A stretch of 64,000 nucleotides of DNA. Source: Neocallimastix sp. 'constans' (taxonomy: Eukaryota). The stretch is taken from positions 62,001-126,000 of the forward strand of contig JBODTK010000015.1 of the NCBI GenBank assembly GCA_050613775.1. Reading direction: 5' to 3'. Both the position numbers and the translations under genes were made by a program. Below are positions 7,814-56,977 of this stretch, in pieces. Each line of letters starts with the position of its first letter. The stretch's first letter is position 1. The notes beneath the pieces are model-generated. The model was not told where the DNA came from. It did no database searches and saw only the letters and a list, made by a program, of their open reading frames with translations.

Positions 7814-8332
7814 TTCTTTTTGCTTTGATAAATAACAAAATTAATAAATCTTAAAAATATATTATACATAAAATCGAAACTAACCTTAGCCAAGTTTAAT
7901 AATAATTTAATAAAATAAAAAAAAAAAAAAAAAAATTTAAAAATTAATTAATTAATTAATTAAATAAAACAAATAAATTACACTTAAAAATTACATTAAT
8001 ACTCAGATATGAAAGAAATATTATATATTTTTCAAAATAAAAATATTAAGATTAAATTTAAAATAAAATAATTAATTTTTATAATTAGTTTTATAATAAT
8101 TTTTATAATTAATTTTATAATTAAATAATATTTTTATAATAATAAAATTAATTTAAATAACAAAATATTTTTAATTATTTTTATAATAAACAAATTTATT
8201 TATTTTATTATTAATTATTTATTTTATTATTAATTTTATTACTTTTATTTTATTTAATTATTCTTTTTATTTATAAATTATAAATAGTTTAATTTTAAAG
8301 AAAAATATAAATACTTGTAAATATTTCATGTA

Positions 8333-8364
<32 letters not shown>

Positions 8365-8598
8365 ATTTTATAATTTTAATAATCACTTTTAATTTTTATA
8401 ATGTTTAATAAATTTCAATAAAAGATTTATAAAATAAAATATTAGAAAACAAGTGTTCTAATAAATCAAATTTTTAGTGTTATTTTTAATAAAACATTTT
8501 TAATTCATAAATAACTTATACAGTTATTATTAAAATAAATTGAAATTATCACTTTTTAATTCTATATTAAAATTAAGATAATTTCTAAAATTTATCAG

Positions 8599-8615
8599 TG
8601 GTCCTTCGAACCGGA
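8599..8615 (+). promoter_or_regulatory. Primer-binding site, probably tRNA-Tyr
   Basis: TGGTCCTTCGAACCGGA 1 nt after the LTR; resembles the complement of tRNA-Tyr 3' ends. Confidence 0.75.
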
Positions 8616-9324
8616 GAGGAAGCTAACTTATTATTAATAAGTATTATTTATTAACACTAGAGTATGAACTAGTATAAAAATTCATAATAATAAAATAAAG
8701 GATAAATAATATTTATTATATAATAATAATTAAAAATTAAAACTAGAGTATGAACTACTATAAAAATTCATAATTTAAAATTAAAAATAAAATATATATA
8801 TATATGTATATATATATAATAATATAATAATAATATAATAAATAGAAATTAAATTAATATTGGGAAGAAAGCCATTTATATTAAGAAGAAAATAATAAAT
8901 AAATAGGAAAAGAACGACAAATATAAGGAAAGGAAACGATAGATAATATTTTGAAAAAAAAAAAAAAAAAAAAAAATTCTATTTTAATTTTAAAGAATTA
9001 TATAGGTTTATATTTTATTAATCATAAACTATTGGAGCTTGACTCTAGGTCGCGATTAATAAGATATAAATTAGAGTAGCAAGAGAGAGTATTGGGTCCT
9101 GATTATAGAGAGTAGAGGTTAGACAGAACTGAAAATTGTACTGGAGAGTAATTGATTGGTTATATCGATACTTTGGTGAGAGATCCAGAGAAACGGAAAA
9201 CTTTATAACCAGTCGAATGAAAACAGCACAAGAGAGTAAGTAGAGTCTAATGAGGTCGAAAATATAATCAGAACGCCAAGAAAATCTATTACTGCTACAT
9301 ATATAATTCGAGGTTCTTAAATAA

Positions 9325-9394
<70 letters not shown>

Positions 9395-9600
9395 ATAATA
9401 ACTAATTAAAGAAACGTATAATAAGTGAATGAATAAATATATTGAAATTGAATATATAAAATTTTAATTAATTAAAAATTTGATTAAATAATTAAATTTA
9501 AATATATAAATATTTTGTTAGCGAATAAATTATTATATAAAATAAAGTATATAAATTATATTAAAGAGAAAACAAAAATACTTCTAAATTCCAGAGTAAA

Positions 9601-10494
9601 ATGTCCGATTTAAAATCAATTAATTTCAACAGAATTCCTATATTAGGTCAACCGACTGTAGAATTTGATGATTGGAATTTCTCATATACTCGTTGGTGTA
9701 ATTCCAATAAAATTGACGAAGAAGAAAAGATAGAATGTTTAATTTCAATTACTACTGGTATTGCAAGAAAGATAGTAATAAATTCATTAAATAAAACTAC
9801 CCCAGATAAATATGATACCATTATAAGTAAATTACAGGAACATTACAAGGGTCCTCTTCCTAAAAATTCAAGGTTATTAGAACTTTCAACAGCTACAATT
9901 AAGAAAGGTGAAAGTGTTGCAGAATTCAACATAAGGTTTGAAACACTTTTAAATAAAATTAGAATTGATTTAAATAAGGAAGTTATAATCTCTTATTATA
10001 TTAATGCATTTCGGACTTTAACTAAAACCTATGAGGCTTTATTAGAAGCAGAACCGCAAAACTTAAAAGATGCAATGCAAATAACGTCTAAAAAGGAGAA
10101 GATATATAAATTAGTAGAATCAAATAGGTCTAAAGATAAAGGAGAATCAAACAAAAGAAAAATAAAATCTAACACTCAAAATGATTATGGAACATATTAT
10201 ACAAGTACTTATAATAAAAATAATTCATTTAATAATAAGAATAATAATATAAATAATAGTCACAACAATAATTACCAAAAATATAATAATAATATAAAAC
10301 CTACTCATAATTATATTAATCAAAATGTTGAAAATAGAAAAGTCACATTGAAACCTACACAACTTCAAGATGATGAATTACAAGAAATAACTCAGAAACT
10401 TGCTGATTTAAAAATCAATGTATGCTTAAATTGTCAAAGAATAGGTCATGTTAAAGATGATTGCCCTGAATTAGAAGAAGAGTGTTTAAATTAA
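9601..10494 (+). CDS. gag: Gag of element 2 with CCHC zinc knuckle
   Basis: CLNCQRIGHVKDDC; capsid-like IKKGESVAEFNIRF. Confidence 0.9.
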   Translation: MSDLKSINFNRIPILGQPTVEFDDWNFSYTRWCNSNKIDEEEKIECLISITTGIARKIVINSLNKTTPDKYDTIISKLQEHYKGPLPKNSRLLELSTATIKKGESVAEFNIRFETLLNKIRIDLNKEVIISYYINAFRTLTKTYEALLEAEPQNLKDAMQITSKKEKIYKLVESNRSKDKGESNKRKIKSNTQNDYGTYYTSTYNKNNSFNNKNNNINNSHNNNYQKYNNNIKPTHNYINQNVENRKVTLKPTQLQDDELQEITQKLADLKINVCLNCQRIGHVKDDCPELEEECLN

Positions 10495-13400
10495 ATTATG
10501 GGAGTAAGCAATCTCCCAAAATAACTAAAATTGCATCATCAAATCAATCAATAAATTACCTTAATAACGAAAATAATCAAATCCCTCAAATTAATGTAGC
10601 CCAGAAAAAGAAAGTGCCTACAAGTACTTTGGATAAGAATAAAATCTCTCAAAATAATAAAAGTATAGTTAAACCATCCATTCTCAATCAACCAAATATT
10701 AAGAAAGTTAAACAATAAAAGAAAGCAATTAGGAATACAAGAAGAAGAAAAATAAGTGAAGAACTTAATAATGAAAAACAAAATGACCATGAATTAAATG
10801 ATAATGAGGAAATTATTATTGATGAACCATATAATACAAAGGAAAATACAAAAGATTCTGAAATGAAAAATAATTCAGAAATCAATAATGGAAATAATAA
10901 TGAAAGTAATAATGGAAATAATAAAAATAATGTAATTAACATAATTGATGAACATAGAAAAATAAATAATGAAAATAATACCAAAGACGTTCTAACACAT
11001 AGTCAATCTCTCAGTCAAACTAAACAAACCAGAAAAAGAAGTATGACAGATATACAAATGTTAGAATCAGGTAATAAATTTAGTATAATTAAGGAAGCCA
11101 ACAACTTGTTTCCGAAAATTAGTCTTGCACAATTACTTTCTATTAGTCCTACTCTTAGGAAGGAATTAGGACAAGGATGTAAGCCAAAAATAGATAATGT
11201 ATTATGCTCTCTTTATAATATTCCTATCCCAATCTTTATTGGAAAAACGAAAGAAGTATTTTTAAAAATTCTTTACGATACAGGAGCAAATGTAAATGTT
11301 ATAACAACAGGATGTTTAAATAAATTTAATGATGTGAAAATTGAAGAAGATATAATAGAACAAAATATTACTTTAGCAAATGGATCTACAGTACCTACTA
11401 AATACTATGTTCCATTGAAAATTAACATTAATGATTCTTGCAACATTTATGAAAAATTTTATATTATAAATCAAGATAATCCATACTTTGATATTATTTT
11501 TGGAAGAAGTATCCAAAAGAAATATAGATTACTTATTGATCCAGATGATGATTTCATATATCAGAAAACAAGAAAAGGTCTTAAAAAGATAATCCAGATA
11601 ATTAACTCAAATAACACAAATAATATTCCCTTAATGAATGCTATTTATGTATCTAAAGAAGATGAAGAAATTCGTGAATTTAACTCTACCTTAAACGAAA
11701 TTCTCAATTCTGTTCCAGATAAAGTTAAATCAAAATTTGAAAGTCTTATTAATCAATACAAAAATTGTATGGCAACATCACTAAGTCAGCTAACAACTGC
11801 TAACCTTGAACCACATTCAATAATTACTACTACGGAAAAACCTATTAAGCTAAAACCTTATAAATTATCAAAAGAGCATTCTGATATTCTAAAAGAAGAA
11901 ATTATATCCTTACTTAATAAAGGCTTAATTATTCCCTCGCATTCTCCTTGGTCATTTCCTGTTTTATTAGTCAGAAAGAAAAATGGGAAATGGAGACTAT
12001 GTATAGATTACAGAAGGCTTAATGAAATCACTATTAAAGATTCATATGCACTTCCTTTCATCGATGAACTTGTCTCTTCAGTTAGAGGTGCTAAAATATT
12101 TTCAGCCCTTGACTTATATTCGGGTTATCACCAAATCCCAATGAATCCCAGAGATATCGAAAAAACTTCTTTCACAACAAAATTTGGAAACTATAATTTT
12201 GTTGTTATGCCTTTCGGTTTAACTAATGCTCCCGCTACCTTTCAAAGGGAGATGAACAGAATCCTTTTACCCCTCATTGGTAAATGCTTATTCGTTTACA
12301 TCGATGACATAGTTGTATATTCTACTTCTATTGAAAAACATCTTGAACATTTAAAACAAGTATTTGAAATATTCTCCAAGTATAATCTCTCCCTCAATCT
12401 TCAAAAATGCAAATTTTTCCAAGAATCAATTGAAGTCTTAGGTCATGTTCTTACCCCTAATGGTTTAAAAACTGTTCCTTCTAAAGTTCAAAGTATAGCC
12501 CTTTGGGAAGCTCCCAAAAATGTTAATGAACTCAGGTCTTTCCTTGGTCTTGCTAGTTATTACAGAAAATTTATACAAAATTTCTCTATTAGAGCTGACT
12601 CTCTTTTTAAACTTCTTAAGAAAAATCAACCATATATATGGACTTCTGATCATAATGAAGCTTTTGAAGACATACGTCACTGTTTATTGTCTGACCCTAT
12701 ATTATGTTATCCTGACTTTGATAAAGAATTTATTGTTAGAACAGACGCCTCTACTCATGGTATCGGTGCTGTCCTCTTACAGGTGGAGGAAGACAAATTG
12801 GAACACCCAATTTGTTGTGTAAGTCGTACTTTATCACCTCCAGAAAGAAATTACTCTGTAACTGATCTTGAAGGTTTGGCTATTAATTACGCAATCCAAA
12901 AATTCCGTCAGAACTTAATTAGTAACAAGAAACCAACTATATTCATTACGGATCATAAACCACTCTTAGGATTTTACAAAAATACTATTCCAAATAAAGG
13001 AAGACACATGCGTTGGATAGAAGAATTTAGCAAATATAAAATTGAACTAAAATATGAAAAAGGAAAGAAAAATGTTTTCGCAGACGCTCTTTCAAGACTA
13101 CCTTCAAAAGACAGCGAAGATATTATAAAATGTATTAATACAATTTTAGCTGATCTTAATCCAAAAGATTTAAACCTACCAGAAGGAATAATCAAATACT
13201 TCACTAAGAATTATCAAGTTGTTGATAACATCTTATATTATAAGAAAGATGATACTTATTTAAAAGTTATCTACCGTGATGAAGACAAAAAGGATATAAT
13301 TAATCGTGCTCATTCTGTAGGACATGAAGGAGCCGAAAAAACTGTAAACAGAATACTAAATTCATATTATTGGCCCGGCATTTGGAATGACGTTAGGATG

Positions 13401-14360
13401 TGGATCAAATCTTGCAGAAAATGTCAACTTTGTAGACCAAAACCAATCCCGAAAAACACTGCAGATAATGTAACACCAGTTGAACAACCATTTACTCGTG
13501 TTGGACTTGATACGATTGGTCCTCTTCCAATTACTAAAAATGGAAATATGTATATTATTACATTGGTTGACTACTTCACAAAATGGGTTGAAGCTAAAGC
13601 CATTCCAAACACAAAGACTGAAGAAGTTATAAAATTTTTAACTGAAGTTATATCAAGACATGGTCCTCCAGAAATAATTGTTACAGATAATGGAAGTTCG
13701 TTCGCATCAGATATTACTAAAATGATGATCGATCTTTATGGGTCATGGGTGCACTTTGTATCTCCACATCATCCAGAATCAAATGGTATGATTGAAAACC
13801 GTAATAGAGAAGTAGAGAAAATTTTAAGACTCTTAGTTGAAAACGAAAGTGAATGGGATGAATATTTACCATCCGCACTTTGGGCTCTTAGAACAACAAA
13901 AAATTCCAAAACAAAATTTAGCAGCTTTGAATTACTTTATGGGAGAAAAGACACCTGGCCATTAGAAGTAATGTTTCCAGATATTTACAAAGATCCAAAT
14001 GAAACAGATGAAGAATATATTTTTAGAAAATTCCTAAGACATCAGAATTGGGTGAAACAAGCAACAGAATATTCGGATTACGCAAATCAATATTGGGAAC
14101 ATCGCATTGGACTATCGAAATCACTAAAGAAAAATTATAAACCCGGAGATTATGTGATGATAAGATTAATTGGAAGAAGTAAGTTAAATCCTTACTTTTA
14201 TGGACCATATAAAGTAGTTAACAAACAAAAATTCAATACAGTTGTCCTCGAGGATCCTCAAACAGGAAAACTTCTTGATCGAAATGTACATATTAAAAAT
14301 GTTTTTCCTTATATCATTCCAGAAAAAGAATTAACTTCAAGGGACGAAGTTCAATCTTAA
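10485..14360 (+). CDS. pol: Pol of element 2, -1 frame, with one in-frame TAA at 10716-10718
   Basis: ORFs 10482-10718 and 10863-14360 are in the same frame with no other stop between; LYDTGA, YIDD, TDAS, HHCC, TDNG, GPY. Confidence 0.92.
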
Positions 14361-14883
14361 CCGCCGAGGAATTGATAAATAACAAAATTAATAAATCTTA
14401 AAAATATATTATACATAAAATCGAAACTAACCTTAGCCAAGTTTAATAATAATTTAATAAAATAAAAAAAAAAAAAAAAAAATTTAAAAATTAATTAATT
14501 AATTAATTAAATAAAACAAATAAATTACACTTAAAAATTACATTAATACTCAGATATGAAAGAAATATTATATATTTTTCAAAATAAAAATATTAAGATT
14601 AAATTTAAAATAAAATAATTAATTTTTATAATTAGTTTTATAATAATTTTTATAATTAATTTTATAATTAAATAATATTTTTATAATAACAAAATTAATT
14701 AATTTAAATAACAAAATATTTTTAATTATTTTTATAATAAACAAATTTATTTATTTTATTATTAATTATTTATTTTATTATTAATTTTATTACTTTTATT
14801 TTATTTAATTATTCTTTTTATTTATAAATTATAAATAGTTTAATTTTAAAGAAAAATATAAATACTTGTAAATATTTCATGTA

Positions 14884-14915
<32 letters not shown>

Positions 14916-15152
14916 ATTTTATAATTTTAATAATCACTTTTAATTTTTATAATGTTTAATAAATTTCAATAAAAGATTTATAAAATAAAATATTAGAAAA
15001 CAAGTGTTCTAATAAATCAAATTTTTAGTGTTATTTTTAATAAAACATTTTTAATTCATAAATAACTTATACAGTTATTATTAAAATAAATTGAAATTAT
15101 CACTTTTTAATTCTATATTAAAATTAAGATAATTTCTAAAATTTATCAGCTT

Positions 15153-16194
15153 TGATAAATAACAAAATTATTAAATTAAAATAAATAATAAAAAACAAAT
15201 TCATGTTAAAGTTTTCTAGCTTAACCCAAAAATTAATCCATTCTAAAAAAAATTAAATCCATATTTAAGAAAAATTAATTAAATAAAGATAATTAAAATA
15301 AAATAATAATAAATTAATTAATCATTAATAATTTTAATTAAAAACTAAAATAAATTAATAAATAATATTTTTCTAAGACTCCAAATAAACAAAATAATAA
15401 ACAAATTTAATAAATTATAAATAACAAATAAACAAACTTATAAACATCGCAAAATTAAAATTAGATAGTTAAATAATTTTTTAAGTTACTTTTATTTAAA
15501 ATAATGATTATTTTATTTATTTTATAACTCAACTTTTATAAACAAATTGTAATTAAAATAACATTTTAAAACTCATCTTTATCAACATTTTATTTGTAAA
15601 TATTGTTTAATTTAATAATAAATTATTCTTTATTTCTCTTTTATTAATTTTATTATTTTTAATGTAAATAGTTTAAAATCAAAGAAAAATATAAAAACAT
15701 GTAAATATTTCTTATAAATTATTCTTTATTATTAATTATTTAATAAATTATTATAAATATTTTATTAGTTTTAATAATCAAAAAGTATGATTATTAATTA
15801 TTTAATAAATTATTATAGATATTTTATTAGTTTTTAATAATCAATTTTTATGATTATTAATTATTTTGATAAATTATTATATATTTTATTAGTTATTAAT
15901 AATCAATTTTATTATTAAAATTTAAAATAAATTAGTATAAATAATAAATATTTCATTTTATTATTTTATTAGTTTTTAACAATTATTTTATTAATTTAAA
16001 CAAAATTAATTATTAAATAAATAAAGATTAATATTAAAATAAAAATAAATTTTTTTAATAAAACATTTTTGTGTTTAATAATAAAACATATTTATTTTTT
16101 TAAATTTCTTAAATCAATTTTATTCAGTATTTATCCTTTTATTCACTTCTACAAAATTTAATTTTTGTAGATTAAGAATATTAGGTATAAATCA
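15153..16194 (+). repeat. Solo LTR (TGATAAAT...ATAAATCA) abutting element 2
   Basis: Starts right after TSD GCTT; inverted homolog at 60562-61540. Confidence 0.8.
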
Positions 16195-16200: not shown

Positions 16201-17395
16201 TGATAAAAGATGAAATTTATAATTTAAAATTAATTAATAAACTAAAATTAATAATTTATAATAATAATTTACTAAACTATAAAATTATAAATAATTATTA
16301 TAAAAAGTTAGTATTTTCAAATAAAATTTTAAGATTAATAAAAGAACAATGTAAATTTAAATAATTAATATAGAAATTAAATTTAAATAATTTTATTATG
16401 TAAAATATATTTTATTACATAAATATTTGTTATTATTTGATATAATTAGTAAATAGTTATTTTACTTTAAAGACTTAAAACTAATTCTTTTTTTTTAAAA
16501 TAGAAAATAAGACTTTAAATAGAATTAAAATAGTAATACTTTTTCTTTTTTTAATATTTCTAAAAGATATAAATAGTAATTAAATTAGATAGTTAATTAT
16601 ATAGCTTAATCTTAACGAAAATTATAAAAACATGTAATAATTCTTATTTAAAAGAACAACATTTTTGTTAACATTTTTGTTTATCAAAACTTGTTCAATA
16701 AATACTTATTTTATCTTATTTAAATTTAAAAGTATTTATTTAATATTATAAATTTAAAATTTAATAAAAATTAATATTTAAAAATTAAATAAAATTTATG
16801 TATTAAAATAACTTCATTGTTTCTAATAAATCAATTTTAAAAAGTTTTATAATAAAATATATTTTAATTATCTTAAAATTTATAACTTTGATAAAGAGTT
16901 ATTAATAAACTAAAGTAAGTTATTAATAATTTCTTATCAAATTTTGGTGGAGAATCCTAAAAAACGGCCGGTGAAGGTTATGTATTATTTTCAAATAGTG
17001 GTAAGATATTTGAAAATTAATTATATGAAATAAAGTTAATATAAAATTTACTGTTATAGTTTAAATCTAACTAAAATAACTATAAACTAAAAATTAAATT
17101 TAACGATCTAAATATATTGAAATACATTATTGAAATATATTTAGTAAATTACTACACATATTAATTAATAGAAAATAATTATATTGTTAAAATATAATAG
17201 TATAATATTATATAATATATTAAAAAAAAAAAAAAAAATAAAAAAAAAAAATAAAAAAAAAAAATATAAAATTAATTTTATAATAAATATTATAAATAAA
17301 TTAAAAATATTCTATTCAAAAATTGAAAATATATATATAGAATAAATATATATAAATAATATAATAGTAAATATCAAAATAATTAAATAAAAATA

Positions 17396-17433
<38 letters not shown>

Positions 17434-17647
17434 TATATATATAATAATATTAAAATAATAATATAATATTTAAAATAATTTAAAATAATTTAAAATAATA
17501 TTTAAATAATTTAAAATAACTTCATTGTTTCTAATAAATCAATTTTAAAAAGTTTTATAATAAAATATATTTTAATTATCTTAAAATTTATAACTTTGAT
17601 AAAGAGTTATTAATAAACTAAAGTAAGTTATTAATAATTTCTTATCA
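16201..17647 (+). mobile_element. Internally deleted LTR element: 5' LTR, PBS, leader and last ~136 bp of the 3' LTR
   Basis: LTR 16201-16939; TGGTGGAGAATCC at 16945; LTR end repeated at ~17512-17647; TSD TTCA at 16197-16200 and 17648-17651. Confidence 0.85.
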
Positions 17648-19433
17648 TTCAATGTTAAGGAATGAACAAATAATGTTAATTTTATTATTTTTCATAAAAA
17701 TAACTTAACCACTAAAATTAAATTATTTATTTCCTTACTTGGGGAACTTTCTTATGTTCTATTACAGCCAAATTATTACTAATATTAAATTTATTATTAT
17801 TAATATAAATTCTTTATTAATATCAATACTTTATTATTAAAATTAATACTATATTATTAATATCAATATTATTATCAATATCTAGTTTTATTAATATGAT
17901 TTATTCTATCAATATTTTATTATTAAAGAAAATTTTATTTTACAAATATTACTAATACAGATTATTTATTATTAATAAAAATTAATATAATTAATAATGA
18001 TTTAAAAATATTTTACTTAAATCCATGATCCTTGTCATTAAAATTAGTAATACTTCCTAAATAATACTCTATTACTAATAGTTCTGTAAAAGTAATAAAA
18101 TTATTTTTAAAATATATTATCACTACAATTAATAATAAATAGTTTAGAATTTAATAATATGTAATAATTATTTATTATAATAGAATAGATTATGAATTTA
18201 TAATTTAAATACAATTCAAACATGTAACTCTAAGATATTCTAAAGAAATGGCTTGACCATTTCTAACGATAAAAAAAAAAAATATAAATAGATGAGAAAA
18301 TTGTATTTTAGAAAAATAATCTGAAAAAAAAATATAATCTTATTAAAGAAATTAATTTATTTTTAGTTTTTAATTGAATAATTTTTATTAAATAAATAAA
18401 TAAATAAAATATTTTAAAAAAAAGATATATTTTAATTTTTAATTTTTTTTATTTTAGTGTTTATTTCTATATTTATTATTATTCTGTCCCGAACCTCAAC
18501 ATAAAAAGTGGTGGAGATATCGGGGAAGTTAATAATCGTAAATATAGAGTAAACAATAATAGGATAGTAATATTTCTAATAAAACAATTTTTTTTTGTTA
18601 ATTTTTTTTTTAATATTAAAGTGATAGGTAAGCAATTACCGGTGAAGCTTTAATAAAATAAAATTTATTGGAAACATATAAAAAGGGATTTAGTACGGTT
18701 TAGAAGCATACCTAGTACTAAAATTCCAACAGTAGGTAGTTTCCGGATTAATTTATCTCAAGAATTGAAAGGTCATTCTTGAGCTCTGGTCGTTCTGTTT
18801 ATTTGAAAGCAGAAGCGTCTGGTTTGATTACTACATGACACCGTAATAGGCAAGCTGTGGTAATTCAAGCACTACATACCTACTTTTTAGTACTGGATAT
18901 GGAAAATTCCAGGAAATGCTCTTTTTATATGTATATTATTCCATAAAATTTTTTTTTTTGTTCTAATAAATCATATTTTATTTTTTTTTAGTTGTTTACA
19001 AATAATATTTTTATTTTTAAATTTTATTTGAGTTATATCAAAGTCGTCTTACGATCAACTCAGAAAAAGTTTCCTACCACATTGCCAATTGATAATAACA
19101 AAAGCACACAACAACACCATTAATTCGAAGAGTTTATTACATTAAAATTTTTTTTTTTGAAAGTAAAGAACAATACAATTATCAAGATATATTTAGGGGT
19201 TATCACTACACTAGTTTATATCTATATATTATTCTTTTCAGATATATTTGGGGGTCAGTGTAACACTAGTTTATATCTTCAATAGTATATTTGGTTGTCA
19301 TTGGACTTTAGTTTATACTAGAATTATTAACTTCAAGAAAAATCTGATATTACTTCAGTCAATATTATTTATTAATTATTTTCAAACATTCATTTTGCTC
19401 AATTCTATTCTGTTACTTTCAATATTAGTTAAA

Positions 19434-20383
19434 ATGAGTTCAGGATCTTCTCCATCAACTTCAAATCCTTCAGTTCCAATTCCAACTGTTATAAACAAAA
19501 TCACGCTATTAGCTTTAGAGAACTCAAGAAAGAATTAAAAGACATAGAAAAACTAAGCAAAGAACATCTCGATATTAGATCTTGGGCTTCAGATTTAAAA
19601 TTTTGGATCAGATATCAGCATGTAGATGATCCAGAAACTATTTTTACGGCATGTATCTTAACTTCGACTGGTGAACCAAGAGAAGTAATTCAAAATATGG
19701 AATATGGCAAAAACTTTAGTGATGACGATGACGATGATGATGATGACGATGATGAAGATGATAGCGATGATGAAGAAGATAATCATTATCCAAGTCTTGA
19801 TGAAATTATTAATGAGTTAGAAACATTTTATGGAAAAAAAGAAGATCAAAACGTCTTGCTTAAGGAACTTCGCTCCTTAAAAATTAAAAAGTATGAAAAA
19901 GTTAAAGATTTTAACATTCGCTATCGATCACTCTATTTAAAACTCGATAAAAAGAGGAAAAGAAGAATTAGTGTATTGGATTATGCTGATTCTTTGAAAA
20001 ATAATAAAGAAGCCTGGAAAAAGGTTTCACTCAAGGATGACATTTCTTTAAAGAAAGCATTTGCAATAGCTGAAAAAGTAGATAGATTGATGCCTACCTT
20101 TAACCAAGAAATAAACGAAAATTTTAGAACAAATTTCAACAATTCTTATAAATCATCAAATTTTAATAACAACCAATCTAAAGGAAAAGTATTTAATGAT
20201 TCAAAAATAAAGAAAAAAGATTCAACTGTTGATAACTTAACTAAAAGAATAAAAGGTTTAACTGTTAGTACCTGTTTCTTTTGTAGTGAAGAAGGTCATT
20301 TTCAAACCGAATGTCCAAAACTTAATGCTATTATCAAAAAGAATCGTCAGGAATACTTCGAAAACAAACGTTTAAATCACTAA
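19434..20383 (+). pseudogene. gag: Gag of element 3, frameshifted near 19510
   Basis: Homologous to element 4 Gag (KKELKDIEK); poly-Asp tract; CFFCSEEGHFQTEC. Confidence 0.82.
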
Positions 20384-22725
20384 AAGGGAGAAGAAGCACT
20401 CCCATTGTCAATAAAATAGCTTCCGTTAAATATCAACAATCTTCAGCTAATGACTACTTCCATGAAGAAATAGAAGATCAAAAAAAAAGTTATGAATTAT
20501 CTGAGGATGAAATTGAAGAAGAAGACATCAATGATTTAGAAGATATTGACTTAATTCAAGATGAAAACGACTACTTGGTTGCTGTTTTTAAAAGAAAGCG
20601 TGATAACATTAGTAAAGATCATAAAGGTAATCAAGAAAAGAAAATTCACAAAAGTCTTAGAGATAATCCTCGACCAATTGTTACTCCAGCTTTGCGAAAG
20701 AAGAAAGAAAATGAATTGAAAGTTAATCCAACTCCAAAACAAACATCAAGTCAGATACATCCTTCGATAATGTCACAGCCCTTAATCAATCTCGAAAAAC
20801 AAAAAGAAAAAGAAATTCGTGATAAAGAACGTGCTAGTACTTCTCAATCACCTATGGAAATTACTGATATAGATTTATCTAATCGCAGAAAAGAAAAAGA
20901 AAAAGGAAAAGAGGTTAGTGATACAGAACTTGCATCTACTTCCACCTCGCCCATTGAAATTGTTGATATTGATGAAACAGATCATATTATTTCTAATAAT
21001 GATGAAAATAGTATTCCAAATAATACATTAAATAAACTCATTAATGATAAACTAAAAGTAAATAAACTTCCTGGAAACAAAATTCCTAGAGTTCCAAGAA
21101 AGATCCAAATGATAGCTGATCATCTACCTTACAATGTTATTAAAGACTTAAATACTACTAAATGTAATATTACCTTTGGAGAATTATTTGAAGTATCACC
21201 AAAAATCAGATCTCAAGTTGCAAAAGGTTTAAAGTTAGAAAAAGATTCTATTAAGATAGCCGGTGCCGTTGACAACATTTGTGCTTCTACTACTATAGTT
21301 AATAATCTTGATCACACTTATAAAAGTAAAAACAAAGAACCCAAAGAAGATGATATAGCCATGGTCGACGTTACTGTTGAAGGAGTCAAAGGAAAAGCAT
21401 TGATTGATTCTTGTAGTAATTTAAATATTATTACTAATCAATTCCTTAGAAAGTTACCTTCTGTATATGAGCCTATTGGAATCAGTCGTGGAAGAATCCG
21501 ACTAGCAACTATTAATGATGATTATTCGGAAGACTATTTAATCAATATTCCTGTACAAATTAATAATTTTCATATGGTTGCTACATGTAGAGTTATAGAT
21601 AAAGAAGATCCTTTCTTTGATATTTTTATTAACTTGAAAACTCAAATAGATCATAAATTGTTTATTCATCCTATTCTTTATAGTCTTTGCCAATTCAATG
21701 ATAATGGATCGGTTGAAGAAATTGCTCCTATAAACAATCAATATGAAAATGAAGAAAAACTAGTTTGTTTTGTAAAAGCTATTTCTAATGAATCTATTAA
21801 GAAAGAACTTAAGAAAATGGAAGGTCTTCCTCCTCGAGAATATATTCATAACGAAAAATTTATCAATACTCTTAATAAAAAGTATCGAGATCAAATAATT
21901 AAACTTTTAGAAGATAATATAGTTATAATTGCGACCTCTTCTGAAGAATTAACACCTTCGAACTTATCTCCACATAAAATTCACCTTAAACCTGGTGCTA
22001 GGCCAATTAAACAAAAATTTTATAGAATCTCAAAACTAAAAACAGATATTCTTAAAGAAGAACTTACTAAATTAATAAATAAAAGACTTATTGAACCATC
22101 ATGTTCAGAATGGTCTTCGCCTGTTGTTCTTGTTCCTAAACCAAATGGTAAATGGAGAATGTGTGTTGACTATAGAAAAGTCAATGATGCTACTATAAAG
22201 GATTCATATTCTCTTCCAAATATTGATGAAATATTCGATAGTTTAGATGGTGCTATAATATTTACTACAATGGACCTTTACTCCGGATATCATCAAATAC
22301 TTATGGATGAAGAGCGCGTTGAAGTTACCAGTTTTACCACAAAATTCGGAAATTATCAATTCAAAGTCATGCCTTTCGGACTTACTAACGCTCCAGCAAC
22401 TTTCCAACGTGAGATGAACAAAATTCTCTTTCCTTTCATTGGTGATTTTGTTTTCAATTTCATTGACGATATCCTTATATACTCAAAATCTTTAGAAGAA
22501 CACCTCGAACATATTGCTAAAGTACTCGCTGTTTTCAAAGAACACAAACTTAAAATCAATATTGAAAAATGTTCGTTTATGCAAACAGAAGTTGAAGTCC
22601 TCGGTCACAAAGTATCTGCACAAGGTCTGAGCCCTCTTGATAGCAAGATTGAATCAATTAAAAATTAGAAACTTCCTTCAAACCTCCATGAATTACGGTC
22701 TTTCCTAGGGGCAATAGGTTATTAT
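20371..22725 (+). pseudogene. pol: Truncated pol of element 3 (protease and RT only)
   Basis: Frame open from T_TTA_AAT at 20371; LIDSCS, WRMCVDYR, FIDD; TAG at 22666-22668 where Trp is expected; no RNase H or integrase. Confidence 0.9.
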
Positions 22726-22757
22726 TATTTCTTGTTGAATAATCCTACTTAGGGCGT

Positions 22758-23460
22758 TGTTGAAATTATAACTGAATTGAAATCTCAATTTCAGTTATTT
22801 ACATTTCAATAATTAAAAATATTATTTATTTAATTATAAATAATATATATATTTAAATAATTAATAATTAATATAAATTCTTGTTTAATATTTAAAGGGT
22901 TATCTTAGGCCTAATAATTCTGAGAATATTAATAAATAAGGTTTATATTAATAATTAATTTCAATGATACATTTGACGTCACGTGTATTTTATTTATATT
23001 ATGTTTTTATATATGTTTACAACATATCTATATTAAATTCAATTATTCAAATTAATTATGTAATTAAATTTATCCTTATATTTTATTATTATTTATATTA
23101 CTATATTATTACTATCTTATAATTAAATATTATTATTATGTAACTTACAAAATATAAAAGAAAGATGTAAAAATCTATCTTTTATGTTCTTTGTAAGGTT
23201 ATTGTAAAATTACCTTAATAGTAATATATTATAGATATTTTATTATTAACAAATTTAAAATTAAATTAATTTGATAATTCTAATTATCAAAGTTTATTAT
23301 AAATAAATTTTTATTAAACTAAACATTTAAATATTTATTATTTTTATTATATATCTATATAGTATATTACTATATAGACATATCGACTTAGTGAATATTT
23401 TTTAATAAACCATATTATTTTATTTAAATTTAAACTATAAATTATATCAAAATCTTAACA
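22758..23460 (+). repeat. LTR of the TGTTGAAATT family with a short upstream PPT-like remnant
   Basis: Homologous to 50178-50913 and 48785-49493; preceded by TTAGGGCGT; ends TTAACA. Confidence 0.8.
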
Positions 23461-24119
23461 AAAAAACTTAATCCTTCAAATAAATTATTAATTAAATTAT
23501 TATATAAAATTGTTTTTCTTTATACTCATTGAACTCGTCTATATTTTAAAAATTCATTATTTTCACAAAATTATTAATAATTATTAGTGTATTTTAAAAT
23601 AATTTTATACATAATGATTCAAGAATAATATAATTATTTAATTATTAATTACATTAATAATATTAATTTATATTTATTATTAATATCTTAGTCTATTTAT
23701 CAATTTTAAATTTTAAATAACTCTTTTTTAAATAAATAATTTAAACAATAGATTTATTAATATTACTTATTTTTAAATTTTTAAATTGTTTAACTAAATT
23801 ATTCTACTAGAAATAGAATAGTTTTTTATGTTTATATACATTTTTTTCTTATTAAAAAGTAAAAAAAATTAGAGAATGTAAAAAAAATTTACAATAAAAC
23901 AAATATTATCTTAAATATAAAATCTTTTTCTTCTTTTTATTTTATATTTTTCTATCTTTTATAAATATATTTTAACTAATCAAAGTTTTAATATCATTTT
24001 TCAATAATTGTAATAAAAAAAAATTAAAAATAATAATGATTTTTTATATATATATATAAATTTATGAAAAATTGAAATTATTATAAAACGAATTAAAAAT
24101 AATAATTTAAAATTAAAAA
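23461..24119 (-). repeat. tRNA-Met downstream flank repeat, copy 2
   Basis: Closely matches ~7041-7740. Confidence 0.88.
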
Positions 24120-24192
24120 TGCGAAATGTGAGGTTCAAACTCACAACCTTAAGATTATGAGACTTACGCGCTGCCGACTGCGCCAACTTCGC
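24120..24192 (-). tRNA. tRNA-Met(CAT) copy with mutated T-loop/B box; probable pseudogene
   Basis: Three C-to-T changes relative to 56978-57050, including TTCG to TTTG in the T loop. Confidence 0.88.
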
Positions 24193-24203
24193 TTCCTCGA
24201 ATT

Positions 24204-24759
24204 AGTAAAAGGTAAGTTTATTATTAACTCAAATAACGAATGACAATTAAATCTAAAGACTAAGATAATTTAACACCTCTCTATTCGAGTTGTTAATAAT
24301 AAACACTAAATTAATTAATTCTATAACTATTATTTCTTATTACACTAGAATATAGTGCAGCACTTTATAACTCTATTTGTTATCAGTTACTGGGTTTACA
24401 CTGAGTAATATATTTTATTTAATAATTATATTTTATTTATTAATATTAATATTTATAATAACAATTTACGTTAATAGTAACGCTAGTGCGTTACAGTTAC
24501 AAGTTCAATTATTATTTATACATGTCAATAATATTATGATTGGTAAATAATTTAATTTAACTTAATTTACTAACCATTAAATAAAATATATTTAACTAAG
24601 TATTTAACTATATAATTAATTATAAAATAATAGAATTTAATGTACGAAATTAACAAAAGATTTTATTTGATTAGCCGAAATTGCTAGCTGTTTAGAGATA
24701 CGTTACGTAACCAAAGAACTATCATTGAATAGGCTTGAAGTTACCATGTATCTGTTACA
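24204..24759. repeat. Solo LTR (TGTAAAAGG family) 11 bp upstream of tRNA copy 2
   Basis: TSD GAATT at 24199-24203 and 24760-24764; homolog at 42162-42721; first base T changed to A. Confidence 0.85.
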
Positions 24760-24767
24760 GAATTTCG

Positions 24768-25854: not shown

Positions 25855-25858
25855 TTCG

Positions 25859-26384
25859 TGATAAAGAATGAAATAATAATGATATTTTTAATTAAATTCT
25901 TGATAATTAATTATATAAAAATATATTATTATATTCTTTACTATTAATAATTTTCTTATATTCTATATTAATAATTTTTATATTAGTTATATTTTATTAT
26001 TTTAAATATTAAATTTATGTAATTAATTAATTTATATGATTGGTTTTAATAATGTAATTAAATAATATAAAATATGTATTATCCATATTATTTTATGAAG
26101 GGGGTTTTTCTGAGGAAAGAAATAGTAGAAATAGTAATGATAATGAAATAGGAATAATAATTGAAAGGTTTCCCATATTGTTATAAAAATAAATATTAAT
26201 ATTAATAAAGTATTTTTAACAATAAAATAATTATATAATTTATAAATAATAAATATTTTTAATAATAGTTCTTTAAATAAAATTTATAATGTGTAATAAT
26301 AATTTCTTTTAGTGTAATTTAGTAGTTAGTTAATTTATCTATTTATTTAATGTTCACACTCCTTTTACAATATGAACCTCAATA
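25859..26384 (+). repeat. Solo LTR (TGATAAAG...GAACCTCAATA)
   Basis: TTCG on both sides; end resembles the element 3 LTR end GAACCTCAACA. Confidence 0.75.
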
Positions 26385-26388
26385 TTCG

Positions 26389-26439: not shown

Positions 26440-26442
26440 TCT

Positions 26443-51691: not shown

Positions 51692-54600
51692 ATGGAAAGT
51701 GAAGAAGCAACAAGTACAAAAAATAATTTTCAAATTCCAATAATCAATCCCAATAATATCGATGCTTCGAAATTTATATCAGCAATAACCGATTTTATTC
51801 CTACATTCTTCTCCCCAAATGGAGTTCTTACCAAAGAAGGAGAAGCAAATATAAAGCCGAATATTCAAGAAGTTTTAATTCAATGTGAGAGTTTTTTCAT
51901 CGATCATCCAAATTCATTCCAAAGCGATGAAAACAAAAATACATACGTAATAAATAAACTAAATGGTCTACCTAGAAGATGGGGTCTCTCTCTATTAGTT
52001 GATGGTACACTGAAAACTCTGAGCTACCAAAAATTTAAGAAGTTACTACTCAAGAATTTTGACTCGGGTGATGAGAAGAAGCAGAAGTACATGCTGATGA
52101 AGCAGTTATGGGATTTGAAGCAAGAACAACTTGGAAAGGTTGCTGAATTCACGATAGAGTTCCGAAGATTAGCAGCAAGGCTTAAATGGCCAGATGAAGT
52201 TTTCATCGACATAATTGGAAAAGGTCTACTGGATGAAGTACGTGAAGAATATGATAAAATAAAGAAGCCAAAAACACTATTTGAAGCTACAAATGTTATT
52301 ATTGACATAGACAAAAAATGCTACTTGGAGACCAAAATTCGCAATTCCTGTCATTTTAGAAACCACAAAACAAAGTCATTTAATAGAAAGAAATATGAAT
52401 TCAATAAAAGCAGTACTAAGTCGAGAAATCTACATCATAGGAAGAACAAGTTCAAAAAAGAAATACTCTCTGCTAATTATACACCAAATAGTTCCAATTC
52501 TATGACAACTACCTTTGTTATATCTACCAACTCAAAGTCTTTCAAAATTAATTTACTAATTGATTCAGGCTCTGCCAAAAGCTTTATTTGCAAGGACTTT
52601 ATTTCAGCTAATAAAATTCCAATCTCAGGCCTTTCTTCTCCTATTAGTATCCAATTGCCCAATAGTAAAAGTATGGTAATTAAACAATCTACGAAGCCTT
52701 TAAAACTGAAAATAATGGACCATATTGAAACCTATGAATTCTACGTTGGTAATCTACAACTTCAAGGTATAAGTGGTATTTTAGGAAGGGATTGGCTCTC
52801 GATTCATAATCCCTATATCAACTTTAAATCCAATAAAATCTATTTCTTGGAAAGTAACTGTGGACAACATTGTCATTCTTGTAAAGGAAATAAATTTATA
52901 TTCCGTTCTAATAATATAACAGCACCTATGCTAGAAGAATCCTCACAATGCGGCCATGACTCAATTATACCTTCATTTATTTCTGAAGATGAACTATATG
53001 ATGAGGATATATGTTGTGTAATTGTTGAAAGTCAAGAACAAGTCAAAACTGATAAAAGTAATAACACAAATGAACTTAGAAATAAAAATAAAATTCTCAA
53101 TAATAAGAAACTTAGAAATAAAAATAAAATTCTCAATAATAAGAAACTTAGAAATAAAAATAAAATTCTCAATAATATGGAACTTAGAAATAAAGATAAA
53201 ATTCTCAATAATAAGAAACTTAGTACTAAAGAAATCATTCAAAAATACTATTCAGATCTAGTGAAAGTCTTTAAAAAAGAAGAAGCTGATAAATTACCTC
53301 CCCACCGGAGCTATGACATAACAATCGATTTGATCCCTGGAGGACAATTATTCTTTGGACCAATATATCCTTTAACTACGGTGGAAATGAAAGCCTTGAA
53401 AGAATATATCGAAGAAAATTTAGCTAAAGGCTTCATTCGAAAATCAAAATCCCCAGCTGGTGCTCCAATATTGTTTGTTAGAAAACACGATGGTTCTCTC
53501 AGGTTATGCGTGGATTATCGCCGTCTGAATGCTATTACAATCCGTAATAGTTACCCACTGCCAAGGATTAACGATTTAATGGAAGTATTTAAAGGATCAA
53601 AGATTTTTACCAGACTTGACTTAAGGTCTGCGTATAATCTTGTCAGAATAAAGGAAGGACATGAGTATCTTACAGCCTTCCGTACTCCAATAGGTCATTT
53701 CGAGTATCTTGTAATGCCTTTCGGCTTACGTAATGCTCCTTCAGTTTTTCAAAGATTCATACAAGATACATTGTCAGAAATCACTGGATCCTTTGTTCAG
53801 GCATATTTGGATGATATAATTATCTTTTCTCCTGACTTTGATACTCACATTAAGCATGTTCGTCATGTTCTTACTCTACTAATAAAAAATGGCTTATTCG
53901 TGAAATTAGAAAAATGTGAATTTCACGTATTTGAAACTACATTCTTAGGTTTCACGGTTTCTATACATGGACTCACTATGGATAAGGATAAATTAAAATC
54001 AATTTTGGAATGGCCCATACCCAAAAACATCAAAGAACTCCAAAGTTTTCTTGGTTTAGGGAATTACTACAGAAAATTTATAAAAAACTTTGCTGAAATC
54101 ATTGAACCTTTGCGGAAACTTTTAAAAAAGAATGCTGATTACTTATGGAACGAGGAAGCAAATTATGCATTTAATAAACTTAAAAATGCTTTCCTCAACA
54201 ATGAAGTACTTATCTTTCCCGATCCAGAGAAAGAATTTGTAGTAGAAACAGATGCCAGTGATTTTGCTGTTGGCTGCATTCTTTCCCAAGTTAGCCCTAA
54301 GGATAATTTATTACATCCTGTAGCATTTTACTCTCGCTCTATGAATAAGGCTGAAGTTAATTATACAATTTACGACAAAGAACTTCTAGCCATTATTACA
54401 GCATTTGACGTATGGAGGCATCATCTTGAAGGTGCCAAATATCCAGTTCAAATTCTTACAGACCATAGGAACCTACTTTATATGAAGAAACCTCAACATC
54501 TTAATCAGAGGCAAATTCGTTGGAGCCTCTTCTTATCTAAATTTGACTTTAGAATTGCTTATAGACCGGGAGTTAGTTCTGGTAAACCGGATTCCTTGTC

Positions 54601-55939
54601 AAGAAGACCGGACTATAAGAAGAATAACTCCTTAGAGGGCTCATCTATCATCAATGATGATGTATTCTGCTGTACAATCGACAGAAATATCAATAGCTTA
54701 AAAGAGTCCCAGTTGTCTGATAAATTTTGTCAAGATACGATAAGAAAGATCCAAGAAAAATCTGGTAAAGTTAAAAGCTCCATATTCAGCCTCTTTAAAG
54801 GTATCCTACATTTCCAAAATAGAATAATTGTGCCAGCATCACTCAAGGCTAGACTTCTAAAATCCTTTCATGATACTCCAACTAGTGGCCATCAGGGGGT
54901 AGATAGGACCCTCGAAAAACTTAGAAGGTACTACTGGTGGCCTAATATGAAAAAGGACGTTATTAATTACGTTCATTCATGCGAAGTATGTGGAAGAAAC
55001 AAGATAAGAAGACATAAACCGTATGGCAAGTTACAGCCACTCCCCATTCCTACAAAACCCTGGGAAGTTATAGGTGTCGATTATATTGTTTACCTCCCTA
55101 CTTCAAGAGATTGTACTTGTATCATGGTAGTATCGGACCACTTAACTAAAATGGTCCATTTAGTCCCTTGCTCTGATGTTCCTTCTGCTGATCAAACTGC
55201 AAAGCTCCTTCTTCTCAATGTGTTCAAATTTCATGGATTTCCTAAAACCATTATTTCGGATCATGGCTCACAGTTTTCTTCGGAATTTTGGACCTCCTTG
55301 TGTTATGCCCTTCAGATAAAGCCCAGATTAGCTACTGCTCACCACCAACAATCTAATGGTCAAGTAGAGCGTGCGAATGCTGTTATTGAACAATATCTTC
55401 GTTGTTATTGTTCTACTGCTCAAAGTGACTGGTGTTATTATCTACCTTTATGTGAGTTTGCTTATAATAATTCTCTACATAGTTCCATTGGTATGTCGCC
55501 TTTTTATGCAAACTACGGCTTCCATCCCAATTGTTTTATAGATTCACCTCCTATTCTTTTAAAGGATAATGCTTCATGCTTAACTAGGGATTGGTCTTCA
55601 CATTTCGAATCTCTCAAGAAACACCTTATAAAGGCAAAAGAAGACTACAAAAAATATGCGGATGTTGGAAAAGCTGAAGGCCCAAATTTCAATGTTAATG
55701 ACTTAGTATGGTTAAGAAGATACTACTTTACCAATGAACCGGCGAAAAAATTAGCTTCTCAATATCTCGGTCCATTTAAAATCATTGAGAAAGGGCAAAG
55801 AATGAACTACCGTTTGGAGTTACCGGAAAACCTCCATCTCCATCCGGTATTTCATATCTCTCAGCTTGAGCCATATACAAAAAGAAATCCAGAATTATCA
55901 GAACCATTAGAAACAGAAGAAGAAAGAAGAGCAATGTAA
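51692..55939 (+). CDS. Single-ORF Gag-Pol polyprotein, Tf1/Tf2-like, no chromodomain
   Basis: LIDSGS, ILGRDWL, LPPHR, SPAGAPILFVRKHDGSLRLCVDYR, YLDD, TDAS, HHCC, SDHG, GPF...HPVFHISQLEP. Confidence 0.95.
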   Translation: MESEEATSTKNNFQIPIINPNNIDASKFISAITDFIPTFFSPNGVLTKEGEANIKPNIQEVLIQCESFFIDHPNSFQSDENKNTYVINKLNGLPRRWGLSLLVDGTLKTLSYQKFKKLLLKNFDSGDEKKQKYMLMKQLWDLKQEQLGKVAEFTIEFRRLAARLKWPDEVFIDIIGKGLLDEVREEYDKIKKPKTLFEATNVIIDIDKKCYLETKIRNSCHFRNHKTKSFNRKKYEFNKSSTKSRNLHHRKNKFKKEILSANYTPNSSNSMTTTFVISTNSKSFKINLLIDSGSAKSFICKDFISANKIPISGLSSPISIQLPNSKSMVIKQSTKPLKLKIMDHIETYEFYVGNLQLQGISGILGRDWLSIHNPYINFKSNKIYFLESNCGQHCHSCKGNKFIFRSNNITAPMLEESSQCGHDSIIPSFISEDELYDEDICCVIVESQEQVKTDKSNNTNELRNKNKILNNKKLRNKNKILNNKKLRNKNKILNNMELRNKDKILNNKKLSTKEIIQKYYSDLVKVFKKEEADKLPPHRSYDITIDLIPGGQLFFGPIYPLTTVEMKALKEYIEENLAKGFIRKSKSPAGAPILFVRKHDGSLRLCVDYRRLNAITIRNSYPLPRINDLMEVFKGSKIFTRLDLRSAYNLVRIKEGHEYLTAFRTPIGHFEYLVMPFGLRNAPSVFQRFIQDTLSEITGSFVQAYLDDIIIFSPDFDTHIKHVRHVLTLLIKNGLFVKLEKCEFHVFETTFLGFTVSIHGLTMDKDKLKSILEWPIPKNIKELQSFLGLGNYYRKFIKNFAEIIEPLRKLLKKNADYLWNEEANYAFNKLKNAFLNNEVLIFPDPEKEFVVETDASDFAVGCILSQVSPKDNLLHPVAFYSRSMNKAEVNYTIYDKELLAIITAFDVWRHHLEGAKYPVQILTDHRNLLYMKKPQHLNQRQIRWSLFLSKFDFRIAYRPGVSSGKPDSLSRRPDYKKNNSLEGSSIINDDVFCCTIDRNINSLKESQLSDKFCQDTIRKIQEKSGKVKSSIFSLFKGILHFQNRIIVPASLKARLLKSFHDTPTSGHQGVDRTLEKLRRYYWWPNMKKDVINYVHSCEVCGRNKIRRHKPYGKLQPLPIPTKPWEVIGVDYIVYLPTSRDCTCIMVVSDHLTKMVHLVPCSDVPSADQTAKLLLLNVFKFHGFPKTIISDHGSQFSSEFWTSLCYALQIKPRLATAHHQQSNGQVERANAVIEQYLRCYCSTAQSDWCYYLPLCEFAYNNSLHSSIGMSPFYANYGFHPNCFIDSPPILLKDNASCLTRDWSSHFESLKKHLIKAKEDYKKYADVGKAEGPNFNVNDLVWLRRYYFTNEPAKKLASQYLGPFKIIEKGQRMNYRLELPENLHLHPVFHISQLEPYTKRNPELSEPLETEEERRAM

Positions 55940-56977
55940 GAAATCATAATTATTCAATAATGAATAATTAATATTTCTTATAATTAATGAAAAATCATTA
56001 ATAATTTATAATTATTTATAAAATAATAATTATTTTTAAATAATTATTTATTTAAATAATAATTAATATATTCATTGATTTTAACTTATAAATTTATTTA
56101 ATAGTTATATTTTCATATATTGATTTAAATTTATTTATATATTATAATTTTATACATTTATATAAATAATATAAAATTTATTTACTTATTATTATTATTC
56201 ATTTAAATAAAATTTTTACAAAAAATTATGTAAATTTGTATTTAATATTTTACCATAAAAATATTAGTTATTTTAATTAAAATGAATTATGTATTTTATA
56301 ATGTATTATAAACTATAAATGTATCTAATCTATCATATTATTTAATCTTTTTTTTAAATGAAAAAAAAAAAAAAAAAAAAAAAATCTTTTTTTTTCATTA
56401 ATTCCTATCCTATCAATATTTAATATTTTATAATTAATTAGAAAATCGGTAATTAATGTTTTTCCTAACAAATAGGTTTTCTTTAATTATACGATGATCA
56501 ATATGATTAGAATATTGATCGAAAAACTATTTAGGTTTTTCTTCTAATCTTTTCCTAAATAGATTTTTTGTTAAGATTAGAAAATAAATTTATTTAACCG
56601 ATTAATTTTTTAAAAAAATATAAATAGGACTCTTGAATTCTCTTTGAGAAATCAAGAGTTATTATTTTAAGAAAATATAATAAATAATAACAAATAAAAT
56701 AAATTTTTTTATTTATATATCAAAAAAAAAAACTGTTATTAATCATAAAAGATTTTTTTTTAAAAAGAATATTTTCAACTACTATTCTGCCGTTGCTTGG
56801 TTATTGTTTGTTATATTTACTTATAATAAACTCTTTATAATTAAGTATAATTTTTATTTTTTTTAATTTTATTTTTCTCAATTTTAATATTATGTAAAAA
56901 TAATATTAAAATTGTAGATAATAGTTATATTAATTAATTTTAGTTTTAGTATAGCTATTACACAGAAATTTGCAAAA

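Follow-up and report, generated by a model that had tools for sequence, protein, structure and literature searches.

Retrotransposons of two lineages stacked at the start of tRNA-Met genes in the gut fungus Neocallimastix sp. 'constans'

In the anaerobic gut fungus Neocallimastix sp. 'constans', about 28 long terminal repeat (LTR) retrotransposon copies and fragments abut one another at one homologous site of a repeated tRNA-Met unit, just upstream of the tRNA gene. They lie in a 64,000-nucleotide stretch of DNA (assembly GCA_050613775.1, contig JBODTK010000015.1, positions 62,001 to 126,000 of the forward strand), hereafter the window, which is numbered from its first letter. Two distantly related lineages of Ty3/gypsy elements occupy this spot, with staggered target-site duplications (TSDs) and, in one lineage, a strict orientation. 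At least 18 LTR types are present among the entries, based on an all-versus-all comparison of 34 segments with an 80 % cut; the original prediction had spoken of ten or more at one tRNA-proximal position. The feature is real, and works like the tRNA-targeting elements Ty3, DGLT-A and Tj1 but is not Ty3. Its notable aspects are the host group, the sharing of one site by two lineages, the missing Ty3 tether and the depth of the stack. By analogy with those systems, integration directed by the RNA polymerase III (Pol III) complex at the tRNA start is probably the explanation.

The window contains three tRNA genes (Table 1; elements are named there by letter), and a search of its 64 kb with Rfam gave no other RNA family at gathering score. 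An LTR lies 12, 11 and 15 bp upstream of the three copies, as had been predicted. The earlier view that all copies are tRNA-Met applies to tRNA2 and tRNA3, which read CAT, but not to the copy at 7741, which reads TAT; if expressed and charged with methionine, the latter would read ATA codons, and its acceptor-stem mismatches suggest decay. tRNA3 is presumed to be an elongator tRNA from G1-C72 and the T-loop. All three copies share a 3' flank of 570-920 bp that is 74-87 % alike, and a fourth copy of the flank, at 59590-60557, has lost its tRNA gene and is partly doubled. The window has a GC content of about 10-15 % outside the coding parts. It is likely a decayed tandem array of an approximately 840-bp tRNA-Met unit. 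Three stacks, S0, S4 and S5, terminate at one and the same point in this flank (728/6986, about 57966 and 60558, respectively), outside the region of 7814-56977 to which the prediction referred; the tRNA of stack S0 would lie to the left of the window.

All 13 junction words listed in the original prediction are present at their positions, but the picture of LTRs separated by one repeated word is too simple, as several junctions are composites of overlapping 4-bp and 5-bp duplications (GAATT, CAATG, CAGAA, TTCA). The flanking words match perfectly in 12 of the 18 stack elements tested and in two of two elements of a control type, for a chance match between random word pairs of 1.6 % (4-mers) and 0.6 % (5-mers). 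The word matches of J, K, M, H, N and O are partly circular, because the ends of these elements were set with help of the words. A second copy defines the ends of 11 elements (E1, A, B, C, G1, G2, I1, I2, F2, F3 and T); of these, eight match, B shows one difference, and I2 and G2 do not match. At tRNA1, GCTT occupies positions -9 to -12 upstream of the gene (A, B), TTCA -11 to -14 (C) and TCAA -12 to -15 (D), and these registers overlap letter for letter. At tRNA2, GAATT (-7 to -11; G1) and TTCG (-11 to -14; I1, J, H2p) have one base in common; at 42722-42729 this overlap recurs for G2 in other letters, i.e. the same register against a 4-bp word. At tRNA3, CAGAA (-11 to -15; T) includes the last two bases of LTR YZ, and the CAATG duplicated around F1, F2 and F3, in the register of T, is made of three host-word bases plus the TG of the next LTR. 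Thus, in four of four complete F/T insertions, the 5-bp duplication combines two bases of the neighbouring LTR with three of the host word. Because they copied their neighbours' bases, these four insertions are younger than the elements outside them. Re-duplication of the same TSD, another part of the prediction, is seen within one register, but from family to family the register differs (duplications of 4 or 5 bp; -7 to -15 where the gene is visible). Ten elements form unbroken chains to a visible tRNA gene (A, B, C, D; G1, I1, J, H2p; T, YZ), and their duplications all fall within -7 to -15. On a bare 840-bp unit, the crude chance of such a placement is approximately 2e-18, a figure that assumes independence and ignores selection. 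Since the words differ (GCTT, TTCA, TCAA, TTCG, TTGA, GAATT, CAATG, CAGAA) yet overlap in register, it is place and not sequence that is constant. LTRs of the control type (E0 and E2-E5; TGTT...AACA ends, 5-bp duplication) are inside other elements in five of five cases and at the junction in none.

Identity across the reverse transcriptase (RT) and RNase H region is 53-81 % among E1, A, D and I2, and 38-42 % between these and T. In a FastTree tree, E1, A, D and I2 (lineage 1) form one branch (support 0.96), and T and its close kin form a separate branch (support 1.0) that is placed among chromodomain-bearing elements; the tree holds 79 segments, subsampled from the 232 of 245 proteins that passed a coverage filter, has a midpoint root and includes no named Ty3, Tj1, Tf1 or DGLT-A. 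A search with the integrase half of A gave 100 proteins at 43-100 % identity and then nothing above 35 %, and the two named rows among those 100 carry an Orpinomyces genome label. These matches point to a likely host among the anaerobic gut fungi (Neocallimastigomycota), and lineage 1 is a gut-fungal Ty3/gypsy clade. Based on Pfam, the pol order in E1, A and T is protease, RT, RNase H and integrase, and the RT/RNase H of A matches that of Ty3 (E 1e-76). E1 and A also have paired LTRs with TG...CA ends, a primer site, a polypurine tract and a TSD. In lineage 1, gag and pol occupy separate frames, whose overlap carries a TTTAAAC/T heptamer that we take to be a slippery site. The lineage also has tRNA-type TGG primer sites and 4-bp duplications (E1, A, C, I1); no self-complement of at least 8 nt was found between primer site and LTR in E1, A, C, D or I2. 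It faces away from the tRNA side in all 14 elements with orientation evidence, as read from the primer site (E1, A, C, D, I2), the purine tract (Q) or likeness to other elements (I0, I1, B, B2, YZ, J, K, N), with M, H and O outside the count.

T consists of a single open reading frame (ORF) of 1442 codons and has a 12-nt self-priming complement in its 3' LTR. Duplications of T, F and G are 5 bp long, and the F/T insertions are mixed in orientation, three facing toward the tRNA and one away. Its RT grouping and a Tf2-like SH3 barrel identify T as chromovirus-type. However, Pfam detects no chromodomain in T, and the chromodomain PF00385 occurs in 0 of 17 T relatives at 66 % identity or more versus 78 of 93 further rows (counted by eye). 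After the GP[YF] motif of the integrase, A has a tail of 52 residues and T one of 56. The median tail is 41.5 residues in lineage 1 (38 of the 100 proteins scored) and 48 in the close kin of T (range 47-57; 16 of 17 scored), versus 120 in other rows.

Targeting of tRNA starts has been recorded in ascomycete yeasts and social amoebae, and has been explained as a safe haven within a compact genome (PMC5006619, PMC5911963; the literature covered also includes PMC6673722). Ty3 goes into the region in which Pol III starts, some 15 bp ahead of the mature tRNA (PMC5911963, PMC6101501), makes 5-bp duplications and grips Brf1 by a vestigial chromodomain behind its C-terminal barrel (10.1101/2021.07.27.453949). 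The window resembles this in the order protease-RT-RNase H-integrase, in insertion at the Pol III start of three of three visible tRNA copies of one tRNA type, in the 5-bp duplications of T and F, and in the match between the T and Ty3 integrases (E 5e-55). However, past the aligned barrel Ty3 has 99 residues and T has 16, and the lineage-1 tails are equally short, so that the predicted proteins of either lineage leave no room for a vestigial chromodomain. Other differences from Ty3 are the 4-bp duplications and one-way facing of lineage 1, the greater nearness of its integrase to that of foamy virus (E 8e-31) than to that of Ty3 (5e-18) in PDB, the self-priming and single ORF of T, and the presence of two lineages and at least 18 LTR types on one site. 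DGLT-A of Dictyostelium discoideum inserts upstream of tRNA genes, at 13-18 bp, and has a short integrase tail without a chromodomain, whereas its chromodomain-bearing relatives, Skipper, insert elsewhere (PMC5006619, PMC6101501); the RNase H and integrase N-terminus of DGLT-A bind the TFIIIC subunit Tfc4 (PMC6101501). T is like DGLT-A in lacking a chromodomain, in its short tail, in its position about 15 bp upstream and in length (1442 codons vs 1437 amino acids), a likeness of features and not necessarily of descent. DGLT-A differs in its amoebal host with a compact genome and in its number, about 20 insertions genome-wide as opposed to about 28 in 64 kb here. Tj1 of Schizosaccharomyces japonicus is a self-priming Ty3/gypsy element with a 5-bp duplication that inserts 5-11 bp upstream of tRNA genes, accumulates in tRNA-rich repeat regions and has a fixed orientation, the same way as the tRNA (PMC4600332). 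T shares its self-priming and 5-bp duplication; here, however, the fixed orientation belongs to the tRNA-primed lineage 1, which faces away, and the self-priming group faces both ways. Distances in the window equal those published for Ty3, DGLT-A, Tyl6 and Tj1. Tca8/beta of Candida albicans and Tyl3/Tyl6 of Yarrowia lipolytica have ascomycete hosts, and no multi-family stacks are mentioned in the available parts of their accounts, nor in those of an S. osmophilus preprint (10.1101/2022.12.06.519325) and PMC7175516. No published account of such targeting in gut fungi or of such stacks was found, in a search whose coverage excluded most subscription journals and genome-paper supplements.

In the proposed explanation, by analogy with Ty3 (TFIIIB), DGLT-A (Tfc4) and Tj1, the machinery of Pol III initiation (TFIIIB/TFIIIC) at the tRNA gene would tether the integration complexes of both lineages. 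Each new element would land between the gene and the previous insertion, most insertions would afterwards be reduced to solo LTRs as their two LTRs recombine, and later recombination between unit copies would fuse stacks and drop tRNA genes. The predicted collapse is in keeping with many solo LTRs, but it is incomplete, as five elements, the source of the five Ty3/gypsy coding regions in the window, retain gag/pol. Candidates for the tether are the short SH3-like C-terminal barrel, or contacts of RNase H and N-terminal integrase with TFIIIC as in DGLT-A; the Ty3 chromodomain is predicted not to serve, because both integrases end 40-57 residues after GPY/F. For Ty3, the integrase binds TBP/Brf1, and the A and B boxes are required for insertion. 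Here, the youngest inner elements, A and T, are at the two genes that have a B box, and at tRNA2 one end of the inner LTR is decayed. This contrast fits a need for the B box as one observation, three genes being too few to count. No perfect B box beyond the tRNAs was found that would account for the position of E1 (six pattern matches in the window vs 3.5 expected).

Among the rival readings, the one with most in its favour is that the elements recognize a DNA sequence, either the unit junction or an existing LTR end, and that the tRNA gene is a mere neighbour. Every site belongs to a copy of the same unit, TTCG, TTCA, TCAA, TTGA and TCGA are near variants, and the outermost E1, with its identical LTRs, indicates that a distal junction is usable. 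Yet GCTT, GAATT, GCTTT and CAGAA have little in common, the place is used by two lineages whose integrases and duplication lengths differ, and no LTR was there to be followed when an empty unit received its first insertions. The TG|AT of an older LTR end was the cut site in four of four F/T insertions, but only four of the 686 TGAT words in the window (both strands) were used. Recognition of sequence is, on balance, unlikely. It is more doubtful still that there were few true integrations and that most of the pile was assembled when tandem units underwent unequal exchange and gene conversion with one another. Such events did occur, to judge from the unlike flanks of I2, the H1p-G2 fusion, the inverted copy at 26439-29413, the lost tRNA copies and the partly doubled flank at 59590-60557; they leave unexplained, however, the first landing of each type at this point, and they do not suit at least 18 LTR types, most without a second copy above 80 % in the window, or the perfect duplications that 12 of 18 elements have of their own. 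Least probable, and very much so, is random insertion into a repeat-rich region, with the picture left by selection or assembly error. The region is nearly all repeats, but the four flank copies (572-916 bp) and the LTR bodies are far larger harmless targets, and only control-type insertions are found there. The repeat copies differ by 4-20 %, which is not something that an assembler invents, and parts of 23460-26440 occur in 24 runs of 18 studies, one of them, which may be the source, at 0.70 of words; the small word shares are not taken to speak for a habitat.

Several observations nevertheless weigh against Pol III-directed integration or against the sequence of events proposed for it. The evidence comes from one window and one tRNA unit, and because all sites are homologous, a preference for the sequence of this unit could still play a part; about 18 of the 28 entries have no visible tRNA to which they are chained. 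The prediction of an ordered record of insertions holds in the stack at 7814, where the LTR divergence is 0.1 % in A, beside the gene, versus 1.9 % (156 bp) in C, two places out, and in the four F/T insertions, but it fails across the window. E1 has 0 differences between its LTRs over 638 bp and is the outermost element of S0, and among the four I copies it is I0, further in, that shows most private differences (15 vs 4, 4 and 10 over 411 columns); this does not suit a rule that the newest is innermost. The two flanks differ in N, O, I2 and G2. Age can be compared with rank for A (one substitution between LTRs over 772 bp), C and E1 only; I2, whose LTRs differ by 3.2 % substitutions, was set aside as a likely recombinant that joins a TTCG stack to a TCAA stack. 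Additionally, H1p-G2 is a fusion, the inverted copy at 26439-29413 has a short shared word at its joint, and 24193-56977 is a patchwork of pieces from at least three stacks from which tRNA copies are missing. Inverted duplication, hybrid elements and lost tRNA copies thereby scramble the stack, and there is no clean time series.

Contigs from other samples offer limited evidence, in both directions, on Pol III-directed integration. On one (L006), a lineage-1 3' LTR directly abuts the start of a G-type LTR with no spacer, as is expected because a duplication at -12 to -15 gives no spacer if G is 11 bp from the tRNA. The first 25 bases of C equal the LTR start of L004, a lineage-1 pol contig, which ties LTR C to a coding lineage-1 element. 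On the opposing side, L006 has no tRNA, and none of the 12 lineage-1 contigs L003-L014 has one. An exact search for the tRNA pattern gave one metagenome contig, L001, with an identical tRNA; it has no verifiable LTR end 11-16 bp upstream, and a CCACCA end 6 bp upstream could not be verified. Approximately 210 bp downstream of this tRNA-Met, a lineage-1-like gag remnant (240-1050, E 9e-8) lies on the opposite strand, facing the gene. Searches of viral contigs gave one and five distant elements, none close. Prokaryote genome bins gave 14 loci, 12 of them AT-rich lineage-1 contigs. Of 20 loci examined with ARAGORN, one had a tRNA (L016, at a distance of about 9.5 kb from a 29 % match), no copy of the present tRNA was found in the five bins, and the 17 tRNA genes in 19 stretches around tRNA matches looked prokaryotic.

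A broader reading, in which belief and doubt are evenly balanced, is that tRNA-start targeting arose independently at least twice in anaerobic gut fungi, in a one-way gut-fungal clade and in a chromodomain-shedding chromovirus subfamily, both without the Ty3 module and both in large, repeat-rich genomes. The staggered duplications would then amount to a footprint, resolved base by base, that several different integration complexes left on a single Pol III start site. If true, this case from early-diverging, repeat-rich fungi would add independent origins, question the compact-genome explanation and yield new surfaces for tethering to the Pol III machinery. With close kin that bear chromodomains, the chromodomain-less subfamily offers a natural before-and-after comparison for a target switch, and E1, with open frames and identical LTRs, makes targeting testable. 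To our knowledge, gut fungi are without genetic tools, and a site-specific integrase would be useful there.

Table 1. Positions of tRNA genes, stack elements and junction words in the window
Feature	Position	Strand	Description
tRNA1	7741-7813	-	Met-derived, anticodon TAT, acceptor-stem mismatches; B box intact
tRNA2	24120-24192	-	elongator-type Met(CAT); B-box match removed by T-loop change
tRNA3	56978-57050	+	intact elongator-type Met(CAT), 66.8 bits; B-box match present
3' flank of tRNA unit	6990-7740	-	74-87 % to copies at 23460-24119, 57051-57970, 59590-60558
I0	1-727	+	family I LTR cut by window start; stack S0; 85-89 % to I1/I2; then TTGA
E1	732-6985	+	full-length lineage-1 Ty3/gypsy; LTRs 732-1369, 6348-6985; TSD TTGA
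E1 reading frames	gag 1497-2396, pol 2324-6334		Pfam RT/RNase H/integrase
A	7826-15148	+	lineage 1; LTRs 7826-8597, 14373-15148; TSD GCTT; stop early in pol frame
B	15153-16194	+	solo LTR; flanks GCTT/ACTT; 95.6 % to B2
C	16201-17647	+	5' LTR 16201-16939, primer site, internal deletion, partial 3' LTR; TSD TTCA
D	17653-22757	+	5' LTR 17653-18501, gag, truncated pol; left word TCAA
E0	22758-23460	+	LTR of non-targeted control type; 83 % to E3
G1	24204-24759	.	solo LTR; 5-bp TSD GAATT; 91 % to G2
I1	24768-25854	+	solo LTR; TSD TTCG
J	25859-26384	+	solo LTR; TSD TTCG; first 20 bases 18/20 to I
H2p	26389-26438	.	H-type LTR, first 50 bp, cut by inversion
Inverted copy of about 46552-48780 (LTR O)	26439-29413	-	91-93 % identity; holds 840-bp patch 27651-28490
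X2/K0	29414-31143	+	F-like LTR, left end lost, right end then TTCG; 72 % to F3
K	31148-31930	+	solo LTR; TSD TTCG
I2	31935-39863	+	lineage 1, broken pol; LTRs 31935-32746, 38943-39863; flanks TTCG vs TCAA
F1	39870-40675	-	chromovirus-type solo LTR; 5-bp TSD CAATG; short reversed matches to T 3' LTR
M	40679-41164	.	solo LTR; right word TCAA
F2	41171-42085	-	chromovirus-type solo LTR; TSD CAATG; reversed: 82 % to F3, 67 % to T 3' LTR
H1p	42089-42161	.	H-type LTR, first 73 bp, fused to G2
G2	42162-42721	.	G-type LTR; left flank missing; at right GCTTT followed by CAA
H	42730-43845	.	solo LTR; TSD TCAA
F3	43852-44820	+	chromovirus-type solo LTR; TSD CAATG; 68 % to T 3' LTR
N	44824-46547	+	solo LTR; carries control-type LTR E5 (45849-46496, minus, TSD ATTAC)
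O	46552-48768	.	long LTR with 14-bp tandem expansion; flanks TTTA, TTCG
P	48773-48784	.	first 12 bp of an LTR, preceded by TTCG; interrupted by control-type LTR E2 (48785 onward)
YZ	49461-50964	-	A/B-type LTR, faces away from tRNA3; start matches A, B; carries E3 (50178-50858, TSD TATTA)
T	50968-56962	+	single-ORF chromovirus-type without chromodomain; ORF 51611-55939; self-priming site; 5-bp TSD CAGAA
Q	57970-58563	-	lineage-1 3' LTR after polypurine tract; ends at homologous site (word TCGA); stack S4
B2	60562-61545	-	B-family LTR; ends at homologous site (word TCAA); cut by control-type E4 (61546-62551); stack S5
TTCG junction words	24764, 25855, 26385, 31144, 31931, 48769		
TCAA junction words	17649, 39864, 41165, 42726, 43846		
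GCTT junction words	7822, 15149		

Some features of individual elements are also of note. At its 5' end (50968-51099), T has, instead of a copy of its 1-kb 3' LTR, a 132-bp palindrome built from the final 66 bp (U5 end) of that LTR, with 0 and 2 differences in the arms and an intact 5-bp duplication; both ends of T may have been of U5 type when it integrated. A 14-bp unit is repeated more than 20 times within LTR O and its inverted copy (28588-28900, 47060-47420). The patch held by the inverted copy, with GAAAT, the end of an F-type LTR and the beginning of another LTR in it, was likely captured from a further stack. The long 5' leaders of lineage 1 (8600-9560, 18500-19430 and 33000-33800) have GC-richer stretches that may fold, with no Rfam family at gathering score. 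The control-type LTR, with copies at 22758, 45849, 48785, 50178 and 61546, has a terminal hairpin and is likely self-priming (11-nt complement); an associated ORF at 62557-63378 had no match in Pfam or in the set of 245 proteins. Finally, bacterial and archaeal bins (L003-L014; G001-G005) hold AT-rich gut-fungal retrotransposon contigs, a contamination of species-representative genomes.

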